Shown: piece after piece, positions 51,133 to 55,264 of the stretch
Layout: every line of letters begins with the position of its first letter
How positions within the stretch are numbered: position 1 is the stretch's first letter
Origin: Cirrosporium novae-zelandiae
Lineage: Eukaryota
Direction: 5' to 3'
DNA: 64,000 nt
NCBI GenBank assembly: GCA_026023565.1
Contig: JAPETS010000006.1
Coordinates: 434,001-498,000 of the forward strand
Translations under genes and position numbers: made by a program
Notes under the pieces: generated by a model
The model's database searches: none
What the model was told of the DNA's origin: nothing
What the model saw: the letters and a program-made list of their open reading frames with translations, nothing else

Positions 51133-51697
51133 CTACGAATTTTCCTGGATGTGTTGATTATATTTATCGTTCGCCGCCCCAAACAGTTCCATTTGCTGTC
51201 TTAGTAGTTCTTCTTCGCTCAGCCCACTCAAAGCGATCTTGTCAACCTTCTTCTCTCGGTTCTTTAATTGTTCCTTATGCTCATTTGCAACAGCTAGAAC
51301 ATCTGATACATATTCGCCAAAGCCAAGATCTGTGAGAGCGCGCTCAACATGTTCGCATGCAATAGTCTTCTTGGCTTCCTTTTCGGCAATATCGTTGGCT
51401 TCGGAAGAGATGAGGGTGATAAATTCAACACAACATTCGATCAATAAGTCTTTTGCGTCCTTGGAAAAGGAGACGCCTTCGGTTGGCGCAAGGATCTCGG
51501 CAATAATCTTTTGGACAGTCGCTACATACTCATTAGCAAGTGTTACGAACATCTTATAGAGCTAGAATAGATGACATACCTTTGGGTAGTGAGAGATCCT
51601 CATCTTTATATCGGCATCCAATAGGGTCAGCGAAACTCTCCATTCTGGAAAGTGCATAGTAGTTAGAGAACTTACCTTTGAACTCTCGGTCTGACAT
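51133..51697 (-). CDS. NCB2: Negative cofactor 2 beta subunit (Dr1/Ncb2), histone fold
   Basis: Micro-exons 51697-51676 (MSDREFK) and about 51603-51580 (DEDLSLPK). Exon 3 from 51521 reads ATVQKII...LLIECCVEFITLISSEANDIAEKEAKKTIACEHV...LSEEELLRQQMELF. Confidence 0.93.
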
Positions 51698-51974
51698 TTT
51701 ATAGACCTGAACGAACGATATGTAGGTTTAAGGAAAGGTGAAGGTATCGGGTTAATGCCCAATAAACTCCGAGCTCAAGCAGGACCCTCCGCCATTGGTG
51801 AAACTTTTATTCCGGCGGCAAAGCTTATTTTTGCGCCATATAAATTTTCTCGTAGTTCTTCTCACATTTTTTTCCACAAACATTGAACATTGCTTCAATA
51901 AAACTCTCAACGCTTGCAATCTTCGAAATGGTACGTTAATTCCTGCAAATGATTGCATCTTATTCCTAGACCTT

Positions 51975-52068
51975 CTATTATGATGAATATCGTGTCGCCC
52001 CTATCTTACCAAGAGCTATTGCTCATGTGGTGACTTACCTGTCCTAGCCAAACGGACGATCTGATCTA
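51975..52068 (+). ncRNA. Box C/D snoRNA, intronic; D' guide matches the LSU rRNA Gm908 region (snR60/U80-like)
   Basis: C box ATGATGA 51980-51986. Guide TCGCCCCTAT 51995-52004 is complementary to the conserved LSU AUAGGGGCGA. D' CTTA, hairpin GAGC-TATT-GCTC, C' TGGTGA, D box CTGA 52061-52064. Lies between a GTACGT donor (51931) and a GCTAAT branch with AG (about 52117-52138). The rRNA target is recalled, not aligned. Confidence 0.72.
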
Positions 52069-52462
52069 TTTCTCCTCCATTATTTCCATCCACCTTTCTC
52101 TAGCAATATACGATCCGCTAATTCCATGAAAGATTTAGGTCTTAGAATGCCAGCGTTATACCCGTAGGGATATGATGTGGACGCACTTCTACCTAGCCAA
52201 TCTCTTCATATGAGACGAGTTCCCACACGTCCAGTCGACCGTCTCCTTTACAATTCTATGATGTTCGAAAAAGAATGTATTATTAAATTTGGACGTCGAA
52301 AGGCGAATCCAACTAAAGACATGGCTGGTCATTGAGACTTCGTTGATTTCTGTTCCAATACAACGACTACACTATCTAGAGCCTGGTAAGCTCATGTGAC
52401 TCTCAAGTAAAGATCTCCAACGTGAGTATTCTATTCCATATTATTCTCAATACAAGACTCCC

Positions 52463-52563
52463 GGCTTATGATGTAAAAACACACTCCATGCTAATACCGG
52501 AGGCGTGAAAGCGCCGGATGTGGATGCCCATGTATTCAATCTTTTCATCTTTCGACTGAAGCC
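52463..52563 (+). ncRNA. Box C/D snoRNA, intronic, double guide: snR53-like (18S Am796 region) plus an LSU 5'-domain guide
   Basis: Terminal stem GGCT/AGCC and C box ATGATGT 52468-52474. TCCATGCTAAT (52485-52495) is complementary to 18S AUUAGCAUGGA. GNRA hairpin GGCGT-GAAA-GCGCC. The D guide CTTTTCATCTTTCGA (52541-52555) is complementary to LSU UCGAAAGAUGAAAAG. D box CTGA 52556-52559. Nested in intron GTGAGT (52422)...GCTAAC...TAG (52620). Confidence 0.82.
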
Positions 52564-53494
52564 TCTCAAGTCTTTTATCCTTTAAATGCTTCGGCGTGAC
52601 CATATGCTAACGGTCACTAGGATTTCGTAGTCGACATAGACCTTTAACCTCTCCCTTTGACATTATCCTATGTAGAACCACGTAGAGTATGAGCATACTT
52701 AGATTACAATTATAACTATTAATGAAAGTATTTTGACAATTTTCAGCTCGGTGTCAGTTGACCAAACTTGGTGATTAAATCAACCTGATGTAACCTTTTG
52801 CGGCTCTTAACTGAACTTAATATGCTCCGGCTGGCGTAATTTGTGCAGATATGCAGATATAGATAATCCTTCAAGGCTTCGATGCAGCAATCCTTCATTG
52901 ATGTCTTTCCAGCCTTACCTTGGCATAACTCCGCCCAGTTACTTCGCCATTCCCACATTCTTGCAAACGTTTGGCACCACTCATCCATAGTATATCGTAG
53001 CCTTCAATTACACTCCTACTCCTCGTCTATTGATAGACATGGCCATTTATCGCTTATCTATGGCCAGCTGATGTCTTTTCATTGCTAATGTCCAGAATCA
53101 GGGTTTCTGCATGCTGAGCTCTCCAGCCTGGTACTCTGTAGGCTAACTTCCAGGTCTTAATATACCAGACTTAAACACCACCCCTGGTACAAGATCATAT
53201 TGTTGTCTCTCTTAAGATTCTCTCTCCGGGTTACAGTTTATTATATATGCGATATTAATGTCTTCCCTCTTTCCTTGGCCATTCCTTCCCCCGTAACAAC
53301 ACCTGGCTTGAGTTGAGGGATATTTCTTGAAGTGAAGATTATATAGGAATATCGCATTCCTATATCCTAACAGCAAAAGAGCTATACAGTATTATCAACT
53401 CTTAAAATTTCCACCTTCACAATACTTTGCGATGCTTCGCACTTCCATTCCACATACATTATAATAAGAAGTGAAACCCACCTACCTATCTACA

Positions 53495-55264
53495 ATGCCG
53501 CAACGCCCTGAACATGATCATGCACATCCCAAAACGCCCGTCACCAACAAAAACTCATCATTTCTATCAAAATTTCGCAGAAGTGATCCCAATGACCAAG
53601 AGCAGCCCATGATCCAGGCGAAGAGTCTTAAACCGCCAAACAAACGCCGTTTTACAAACTGGTGGCTCTGGGAGCTTTTGAGCTGGGTCGTTGCAGCTTC
53701 GACTCTAATGGCAGCCATTGTCATTCTAGCAAACTATCACGGAAAATTATTGTCGGAGTGGCCCTTCAGTTTTACCCTAAACTCTCTGATATCCTTTTTT
53801 GGTACCATTTCAAAATCTGCAATGCTTGTATCGGTGACGGAAGCGTTAAGCCAACTGAAATGGAACAGATTTAGTCGCCGGCAACATGACCTCGTTGAGC
53901 TTCAAGAATATGACAATGCTTCCCGCGGTCCTTGGGGCTCCAGTTTACTTATTATAAGCCTCCGAGCTCGAACCCTAGCATCCGTAGGAGCAGGTATTAT
54001 CATACTTGGGCTTGCAGTTGACACATTTATGCAGGCAGTAGTCACGTATGTTGCAAGACCAACACAGATCCATGGACAAGGAATCCTTCCCCGAGCAAGT
54101 GGCTATTTCATGCACGACAATGACTCTATGGGGCTCCAGACCATCGATCTTACCATGAAGGCAGCAATATACAATGGGATATACAGTTCTGACATTTCAA
54201 GTATAGACTTCTCGCCGAGTTGCGACTCTGGGAACTGTACGTGGCCCAAGTATTCGACTTTGGCAATAAGTAGCCAGTGTGCAGACGTGACCAACCATAT
54301 CTCTCAAAACTGCAGCGATGTCACGAAATGTCCGGCCAGATTGCCAGATGGTCCTTTACTCCATGTTTTCTATTACTTGAATGTCACAACTTACGACATG
54401 TGGGGCAACCAGACGCTTGCATTTAAGAATATCCCGAACCGTTTGCTGGATTTTGTGACCATGTATTCCCCTAGCTCTTTTAATAACGCAAGTGATGTCA
54501 AGGCCTTTGAATGCATACTATATTTCACCGTCAACTCTTATTCGGGCACTACAATGACAAACGGAGTCTTGTCGGAGAACGGGACAACCTGGTATCCCAA
54601 AGAGGCATTTTTAGATGACGCATCAACCTGGGAATTCGACTCTCCAAGCGAATCGTCTGGTACTGGGGAGGATTCTCACTTTGAGATCGCCGCCAGCTCC
54701 CTCGTCGGCTTCTGGTCCATATTCCCTGACCTCTTCAATGGCACCGTCTATGGATCCCCTGCCTCGCCACCCTTTTATTCCTCGGATACAATGCAAGCCT
54801 TTCGGAGCAGCGCCGAGAGTCTCGGTCGCATGCAGAAACTGTTCACAAACCTCGCAACTTCTATGACAAACAATATTCGGGAGGAAGGAGGAGCTAATTC
54901 CACCGGGACTGCCTGGAAGACTGAAACCTATATTCATATTCGGTAAGCTCACAGCTATGAATTCTCTTCAGGATCGATAACTTGGCTGATTTCCTGTAGC
55001 TGGCAGTGGCTTATTCTCCCTGTTTCCTTACTTATGCTTTCCCTGGTCTTCCTCATCATAACAATGCTTGTAAGCAACAAGCAAAATATACCCGTGTGGA
55101 AGTCGTCGCAACTTGCATTGCTGTTCCATGGTCTGACCCCCGAGTACCGAGCTAAAACCGATCATGAAAATGCCAATCTAGATTTGATTACTGAGATGGA
55201 AGATTTTGCAAAGAAGATCCGGGTAAAGCTCATGCAAACAGAGGACGGTGTTCAATTTGTTTGA
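53495..55264 (+). CDS. Membrane protein of unknown function (DUF3176-like)
   Basis: Motifs WWLWELLS, TLNSLIS, VTEALSQLKW, YDNASRGPWGS, CDSGNCTW..YSTLAISSQC, NLATSMTNNIR, G.AW..ETYIHIR|WQWL.LP and PVWKSSQLALLFHGL. Intron 54943-54999. Confidence 0.85.

Follow-up and report, generated by a model that had tools for sequence, protein, structure and literature searches.

A predicted non-coding host gene for two box C/D small nucleolar RNAs of the snR67 and snR53 families beside the NC2-beta gene of Cirrosporium novae-zelandiae

The stretch of 64,000 nucleotides (nt) of Cirrosporium novae-zelandiae DNA analysed here (contig JAPETS010000006.1, positions 434,001 to 498,000 of the forward strand; hereafter the window) carries on its plus strand, next to the gene for NC2-beta, what we regard with good confidence as a non-coding host gene having one box C/D small nucleolar RNA (snoRNA) in each of its two introns; what doubt is left concerns mostly the splicing. 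The predicted gene consists of a putative exon 1 (51880..51930), the 5' end of which was guessed from the position of a TATA motif; intron 1 (51931..52138), with a GTACGT donor (51931-51936) and a GCTAAT branch site (52117-52122, the branch A at 52121); a putative, non-coding exon 2 (52139..52421); intron 2 (52422..52620), with a GTGAGT donor, a GCTAAC branch site (52606-52611, A at 52610) and a TAG acceptor ending at 52620; and a putative exon 3 (52621..52750) whose 3' end is tentative. Intron 1 has three candidate acceptor AGs, ending at 52132, 52138 and 52145, and the second of them is used here. SnoRNA 1 (51976..52068) lies in the first intron and snoRNA 2 (52463..52563) in the second, each being defined by homology, by guide pairing and by a covariance-type match to a model of its relatives (R1 and R2 below). 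An earlier note on this DNA, made from the letters alone, had described two well-formed introns holding RNAs with C, D', C' and D boxes, and its description stands: donor, branch site and acceptor can be read in both introns and all the boxes were located, the D' box of snoRNA 2 in degenerate form. We infer that the locus is transcribed and spliced, and that its RNAs assemble into small nucleolar ribonucleoproteins (snoRNPs) and direct methylation.

SnoRNA 1 has a C box (AUGAUGA, 51980-51986), followed on the plus strand by the D' guide (51992-52004), a D' box (CUUA, 52005-52008), an internal hairpin (52013-52024), a C' box (GUGGUGA, 52027-52033), a further hairpin (52040-52058) with the loop UAGCCAAAC (52045-52053) and a D box (CUGA, 52061-52064). 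In relatives the 7-8 nt separating this last hairpin from the D box are freely variable, and the RNA therefore has no canonical D guide. Its 3' part is instead a hairpin of 3-6 base pairs (bp) which in the loci of the family alignment (A1) displays the loop (A/U)GCCAAAC. The core of this loop, CCAAA, is invariant in all 36 family members. The closing stem is at least 3 bp long in every one of the 36 and is built from 17 different stem sequences, with a mean length of 3.94 bp against 3.22 +/- 0.13 bp when the partners are permuted.

SnoRNA 2, also on the plus strand, is enclosed by a 4-bp terminal stem (GGCU/AGCC, 52463-52466 with 52560-52563). Within this are a C box (AUGAUGU, 52468-52474), the D' guide (52485-52495), the degenerate D' box (CCGG, 52497-52500), an internal hairpin (52502-52515), a C' box (AUGUGGA, 52518-52524), the D guide (52541-52555) and a D box (CUGA, 52556-52559).

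Homologs were retrieved from a metagenome collection with a 19-nt query, the D guide and D box of snoRNA 2 together, and 103 loci were obtained. The CATGCTA guide stands upstream of the 19-mer in 71 of these, most of which also have a C box; the remaining 32 are unrelated, many of them lying in a different, bacterial-looking context. Among the homolog loci with at least 1000 nt of upstream sequence, the core of snoRNA 1, GTCGCCCC, occurs on the same strand 250-1000 nt upstream in 38 of 38, as against 1 of 38 for its reverse complement, and the two-snoRNA cluster is therefore conserved. Since snoRNA 1 was not used in fetching the loci, its conservation is independent evidence. Family alignments were made from 35 distinct homologs of snoRNA 1 and 56 of snoRNA 2. 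The boxes and guide cores are invariant in both, including CATGCTA in all 56 homologs of snoRNA 2; the C and D boxes, whose lack of conservation would have counted against the earlier note, are invariant or nearly so. All invariant positions are intact in the window copies, and one copy of each RNA was found in the 64 kb searched. Models built with the window excluded match it once each: R1 (35 homologs) at 51976-52068 with 63.8 bits and E 3.5e-19, and R2 at 52462-52565 with 67.8 bits and E 8.3e-14. In DNA alignments with relatives the window matches in just three islands: the NCB2 coding sequence, snoRNA 1 and snoRNA 2.

The identity of both RNAs is settled by the printed Neurospora crassa sequences (supplement 1 of Liu et al. 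2009, PMC2780460). UCGUGUCGCCCCUAUC and AGCCAAACG are common to N. crassa CD26 and snoRNA 1, while snoRNA 2 shares with CD11 the full D guide and D box, CUUUUCAUCUUUCGACUGA, and the D' guide, UCCAUGCUA. The D' box is CUGA in CD11 and CCGG in the window. Canzler et al. 2018 (PMC5824354) equate CD_26 with the snR67 family and CD_11 with snR53. By homology, then, snoRNA 1 is a member of the snR67 / CD_26 family and snoRNA 2 of the snR53 / CD_11 family.

Splice signals were surveyed around the snoRNAs of 60 unique homolog loci, with 23,600 random anchors and 90 antisense positions as controls. A CTRAY branch consensus followed by AG, 48-80 nt after the D box, was present in 39/39 cases for snoRNA 1 and 56/56 for snoRNA 2, compared with 8.7% of random anchors and 6/90 antisense. 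A GTRNGY donor preceded the C box by 28-72 nt in 33/38 and 42/58 cases, respectively (random 13.4%; antisense 9/90). The distance from D box to branch A has a median of 57 nt (52-76) for snoRNA 1 and 56 nt (50-78) for snoRNA 2, with 57 and 51 nt in the window; from donor to C box the medians are 41 and 36 nt, and the window values 49 and 46. These approximately 60 distinct fungal loci show how tight the snoRNA-to-branch-point spacing is (median 56-57 nt, range 50-78). Hirose and Steitz reportedly found, in 2001, that in mammals an intronic snoRNA precedes the branch point by a fixed distance of about 50 nt. A second donor-like sequence, GTAAGC (52386-52391), precedes the GTGAGT donor of intron 2 by 36 nt and might allow this intron to be spliced in more than one way; alternative splicing has been reported in N. 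crassa hosts.

The exons that would be joined by this splicing have little coding capacity. On the plus strand between 51900 and 52640 no open reading frame (ORF) of at least 60 amino acids (aa) starts with ATG, and the predicted spliced RNA contains none longer than 41 aa, which bears out the earlier statement that the region has no credible ORF. The exons and their flanks gave no blastn or tblastx match at related loci; a conserved peptide encoded there would have spoken against a non-coding host.

No ribosomal RNA (rRNA) is present in the window, and the targets were therefore sought in ribosomal DNA (rDNA) fetched elsewhere, from eukaryotic contigs contaminating bacterial assemblies, by means of a standard primer site; 12 loci longer than 1900 nt were examined. 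A scan of viral contigs for a primer site of the large subunit (LSU) rRNA, aimed at the 3' half of 25S, found nothing. The D guide of snoRNA 2 matches 25S TCGAAAGATGAAAAG by 15 Watson-Crick pairs without interruption in 7/12 loci and by 13-14 pairs in the other five, where the site reads GGGAAAG or TGGAAAG. The D' guide of the same RNA forms 11 pairs with 18S ATTAGCATGGA in all three loci that include 18S, and its D' antisense element, (U)CCAUGCUAAU, fits the 18S A796-equivalent, the pairing by which the family is recognised. For the D' guide of snoRNA 1 there are 10 pairs with 25S AT(A/G)GGGGCGA in 8/12 loci. Counting the register by hand, with the methylated nucleotide opposite the 5th position from D or D', points to the second G in the GGGG run of the P-loop, the 25S G908-equivalent, the 18S A796-equivalent and 25S A356 (Neurospora numbering), and these four sites agree with printed ones. 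At the GGGG run near position 900 of 25S the register of snoRNA 1 falls on the nucleotide targeted by N. crassa CD48, the snR60 homolog. The earlier claim of rRNA-complementary guides thus holds for both D' guides and for the D guide of snoRNA 2; on the D-box side of snoRNA 1 it fails, the element there being the hairpin described above.

For the P-loop a pattern was derived from the window (reverse complement of the snoRNA 1 loop, a gap of 0-3 nt, then that of the guide, G-U pairs being accepted) and applied to five genomes. It matched once, at the contiguous sequence GTTTGGCTGGGGCGGCAC; the locus is eukaryotic LSU rRNA (2133 bits), with the site near model position 2620. Together the loop and the D' guide (UGUCGCCCC) span, in two pieces, an unbroken run of 18 rRNA bases in the P-loop region of 25S. 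The guide lies over GGGGCGGCAC, the second G of which is opposite position 5 and is the yeast Gm2619 site; the loop AGCCAAAC pairs with GUUUGGCU, the stretch of eight rRNA bases that directly adjoins the D' target on its 5' side. The same P-loop site is listed as snR67 Gm2616 / human U31 Gm4166 in a table of PMC3511168. Pairing in register amounts to 10 bp in the window, to at least 9 bp in 36/36 family members and to at least 10 bp in 33/36; the alternative pairing at the G908 site reaches 9 bp in only 28/36. The U, G and U just 5' of CGCCCC are invariant, and they fit the P-loop (as G-U, C-G and A-U) and not the G908 site. Across the family the accessory loop is kept alongside the invariant UGUCGCCCC. 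The simplest reading is that the D' guide of snoRNA 1 would have two targets, the P-loop and the G908-equivalent. According to Canzler et al. 2018 (PMC5824354) the 25S-2619 target has been abolished in Dothideo-, Eurotio- and Leotiomycetes, where CD_26 has another D' target instead. This second target fits the UAU extension of the window guide; the loss of the first is at odds with the P-loop pairing of all 36 family members. The point of DISAGREEMENT with print suggests that the P-loop guide may be retained in lineages for which that survey reported loss.

Taken together, the features would describe a short gene of about 0.8 kb without coding potential, transcribed by RNA polymerase II away from NC2-beta, with two introns of about 200 nt that each carry one box C/D snoRNA. 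By analogy with the established intronic-snoRNA pathway, each lariat, once spliced out, would undergo debranching and then trimming as far as the snoRNP core, and the joined exons are probably discarded. The D' guide of snoRNA 1 would then direct methylation at the second G of the GGGG run in the 25S P-loop (yeast Gm2619) and could also reach the G908-equivalent, the pairing of the loop AGCCAAAC beside the D' target helping the interaction. SnoRNA 2 would act through its D' guide on the 18S A796-equivalent and through its D guide on 25S A356 (N. crassa numbering).

Several observations weigh against this interpretation. Rfam at gathering thresholds gave no match in the whole 64-kb window; under permissive settings there are only weak, though informative, matches. 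SnoRNA 1 missed the gathering score of RF01177 (snR67), with 17.9 bits against 55; its weak permissive matches are to snR67, plant snoU31b and fly Me28S-Gm1083, all through the guide sequences. The printed yeast-clade alignment is of Saccharomycotina only and includes a D guide lacking in this lineage, and the model from 35 closer homologs gives 63.8 bits; we take the Rfam threshold as a limit of that model and not as a family-defining trait. For snoRNA 2 the best match is mammalian snoU6-53 (20.4 bits against 36), by way of the shared guide, and RF00338 (snR53) gave no match at E up to 10. SnoRNA 1 is without a terminal stem, and the D' box of snoRNA 2 is two positions off CUGA. The score of R2 is inflated, partly by construction, because the 19-mer used for retrieval is fixed in all rows. 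If G-U pairs are counted, several guide runs of 10-15 bp also arise by chance elsewhere in rDNA, which is why the target assignments depend on the register and on agreement with published sites and not simply on the length of a match. The missing Rfam families and the degenerate D' box are what one would expect if boxes and guides were chance matches or belonged to decayed pseudogene copies. That would leave unexplained the single matches of models that exclude the window (E 3.5e-19 and 8.3e-14) and the intact invariant positions in what are the only copies found in 64 kb, and we consider its probability close to negligible.

The strict donor pattern is missing in 5/38 relatives for snoRNA 1 and in 16/58 for snoRNA 2, and splicing at the locus is itself deduced. 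Real snoRNAs might accordingly be released by a route other than splicing: RNase III and exonucleases would excise them from a dicistronic precursor that stays unspliced, or from the transcripts of two separate promoters, as happens with the snoRNA clusters of budding yeast (background in PMC2780460). An endonucleolytic pathway has no reason to keep a branch point and an AG, though, and a branch consensus followed by AG stands 50-78 nt after the D box in 95/95 informative cases against 8.7% at random, in a strand-specific manner. Donor, branch site and acceptor fit the consensus in both introns of the window, and spliced products were obtained from such clusters in N. crassa by reverse transcription PCR (RT-PCR; PMC2780460), all of which makes release of this kind quite improbable. 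The introns could, alternatively, belong to a protein-coding gene, as many fungal C/D snoRNAs do (PMC2780460), either as introns in the 5' untranslated region of the downstream DUF3176 gene or between exons for a functional micropeptide. The DUF3176 ORF (53495-54946, plus strand, 483 aa, uninterrupted; Pfam DUF3176, E 1.9e-33) is on the same strand, 875 nt downstream, and an ATG at 51928-51930 abuts the donor of exon 1 and, with the acceptor at 52138, would open an ORF of 25 aa. An 875-nt third exon would be an unusual leader, however; DUF3176 is absent from all related loci that have the snoRNA cluster, and neither the lack of blastn and tblastx matches nor a longest ORF of 41 aa suits a micropeptide. 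A protein-coding host thus appears very improbable, and intronic snoRNAs in a non-coding gene are the reading we retain. The neighbours of the DUF3176 protein in the protein atlas are ascomycete hypothetical proteins.

A locus of this kind is already known. The placing of C/D snoRNAs in introns of non-coding hosts in filamentous fungi, which the earlier note took as established, was described in N. crassa by Liu et al. 2009 (PMC2780460), where C/D clusters lie in UHG-like non-coding hosts with one snoRNA per intron; these hosts, the spliced RT-PCR products of which were mentioned above, have ORFs of only 159-267 bp and a similar style of spacing. CD26 and CD11 are both listed there as intronic and on chromosome I. 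That they share one host in N. crassa we infer because of the 38/38 linkage in relatives. The targets given for CD11 are 18S-Am793 and 26S-Am356, and CD11-guided modification was verified by primer extension (PMC2780460). CD26 was assigned by the same authors to U2-Gm183, whereas the guide of snoRNA 1 fits the 25S P-loop and the G908-equivalent. The available part of Liu et al. 2009 makes no mention of linkage to NCB2, and that of Canzler et al. 2018 (PMC5824354) does not discuss host genes for the snR67/snR53 pair. In the latter survey the snR53 D' guide is directed to 18S-796 and the snR67 D' guide to 25S-2619, in agreement with the window; a site in U6 is given there as a further target of the snR53 D' guide.

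Agreement extends to Saccharomyces cerevisiae, the targets of both RNAs being those of yeast snR67 and snR53 (PMC3511168, PMC3116282). Yeast snR67 (RF01177) uses the same guide, UGUCGCCCC, for L2619 as snoRNA 1, and snR53 (RF00338) the same guide, CUCCAUGCUAAU, for S796 as snoRNA 2. Yeast snR67 also has the extra pairing, AGCCAA with L2612-6 (PMC3116282, supplementary figure S1), that is found in the loop of snoRNA 1, and such extra pairing can raise methylation up to five-fold (van Nues et al. 2011, PMC3116282). The differences are on the D side: the true D guide of yeast snR67, for U2724, has no counterpart in snoRNA 1, and the yeast snR53 alignment lacks the D guide for 25S A356 which snoRNA 2 has. 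Gene structure differs as well. The yeast SNR67-SNR53 unit has the same gene order, snR67 then snR53, and is dicistronic, its RNAs being released from an unspliced precursor. 'Cluster 4' of Kuraishia contains snR53, which is indirect support only for the yeast dicistronic arrangement. Mammalian UHG/SNHG1 and GAS5, a comparison drawn by Liu et al. 2009, resemble the fungal host: each intron holds a single C/D snoRNA, exon conservation is poor and there is no meaningful ORF. The fungal gene, at about 0.8 kb and with two introns of about 200 nt, is much smaller. Intronic snoRNA clusters of the same organisation are said to have been found in Candida by Mitrovich et al. in 2010. The families, their targets and the accessory pairing have all been described before (PMC2780460, PMC5824354, PMC3116282), and the current understanding of snoRNA biology is unchanged. 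What is added is an unannotated non-coding gene and two predicted rRNA-modification guides for this genome, together with a case in which a first-pass reading of the sequence recovers snoRNAs where Rfam thresholds fail.

The NC2-beta gene (NCB2/Dr1-type) occupies 51133..51697 on the minus strand, as a coding region with introns. Its large exon (51133-51552) matches Pfam CBFD_NFYB_HMF with E 7.9e-15, and the closest solved relative is the NC2 beta chain, 1jfi_B (E 2.1e-26), with NF-YB chains at approximately 1e-10; the first exon, as read from the sequence, ends in a GTAAGT donor. The start codon at 51697 is 234 nt from the first donor of the host gene, in keeping with the earlier placing of the host start close to the NCB2 ATG on the opposite strand. 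The divergent intergenic region (51698..51879) presumably holds both promoters, as judged from motif positions and sequence; a TATAAA at 51839-51844 faces the host gene. Linkage was followed at 59 distinct snoRNA 2 loci, 24 of which were informative and 35 too short. NC2-beta lies upstream, always on the opposite strand, in 12 of the 24; the other 12, each with at least 1900 nt upstream, have no NC2-beta match. The distance from the end of the NC2-beta match to the C box of snoRNA 1 is 376-1250 nt (376-632 nt in 9/12; 428 nt in the window), and NCB2 identity drops to 53-72% across the linked relatives. The head-to-head pairing of NC2-beta with the snR67-snR53 host is kept across deeply diverged Pezizomycotina.

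From the unlinked loci, 12 of 130 ORFs of at least 110 aa, drawn from 11 loci, were scanned. In three loci COX16 lies divergently upstream (L030:4128-4499, L069:3710-4222 and L073:1344-1895; Pfam E 4e-20 to 4e-22), so the cluster has moved or changed partner at least once. In other unlinked lineages the divergent neighbour is an unknown protein. A Na/Ca-exchanger fragment is found further upstream in two; six of the scanned ORFs have no family match and one has a sub-threshold Btz match. The synteny with NCB2, which the earlier note proposed as a check, is accordingly found in half of the informative loci and lacking in the rest. The divergent order of NC2-beta and host is real and old in one large clade, and is not a property of the cluster itself. 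That note had also proposed that a bidirectional promoter couples the NC2 repressor subunit to rRNA-methylation guides. On a fuller form of this idea, one shared promoter would tie the dosage of a general Pol II repressor subunit to the output of the guides, and both would react jointly to growth signals. The evidence for such coupling is the geometry of the two genes, and we think it unlikely. Head-to-head neighbours are common in compact fungal genomes. The intergenic region gave no blastn or tblastx match in relatives. A shared promoter motif was sought in 13 NCB2-linked intergenic regions and rejected: the top 7-mers occurred in 8 regions, the same as the maximum of the shuffled null, and most of them fall in NCB2 exon 1 or its donor.

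Some minor observations may be recorded. A third snoRNA in the middle exon was considered and rejected; the sole hint was a match to the H/ACA RNA ceN48 at E = 10, and the exon is unconserved, with a fold z-score of 0.02 against shuffles. Among the 32 retrieved loci that hold no snoRNA, about 20 have the 19-mer within a conserved context starting TTGAGCTTATTGAG, which looks like conserved, probably bacterial, coding sequence; they include L004, L011, L026, L042, L043, L045, L049, L052, L063, L071, L079 and L080. Lastly, at least 60 bacterial or archaeal assemblies of the species-representative genome collection (L104-L163) carry small contaminant contigs of eukaryotic rDNA.

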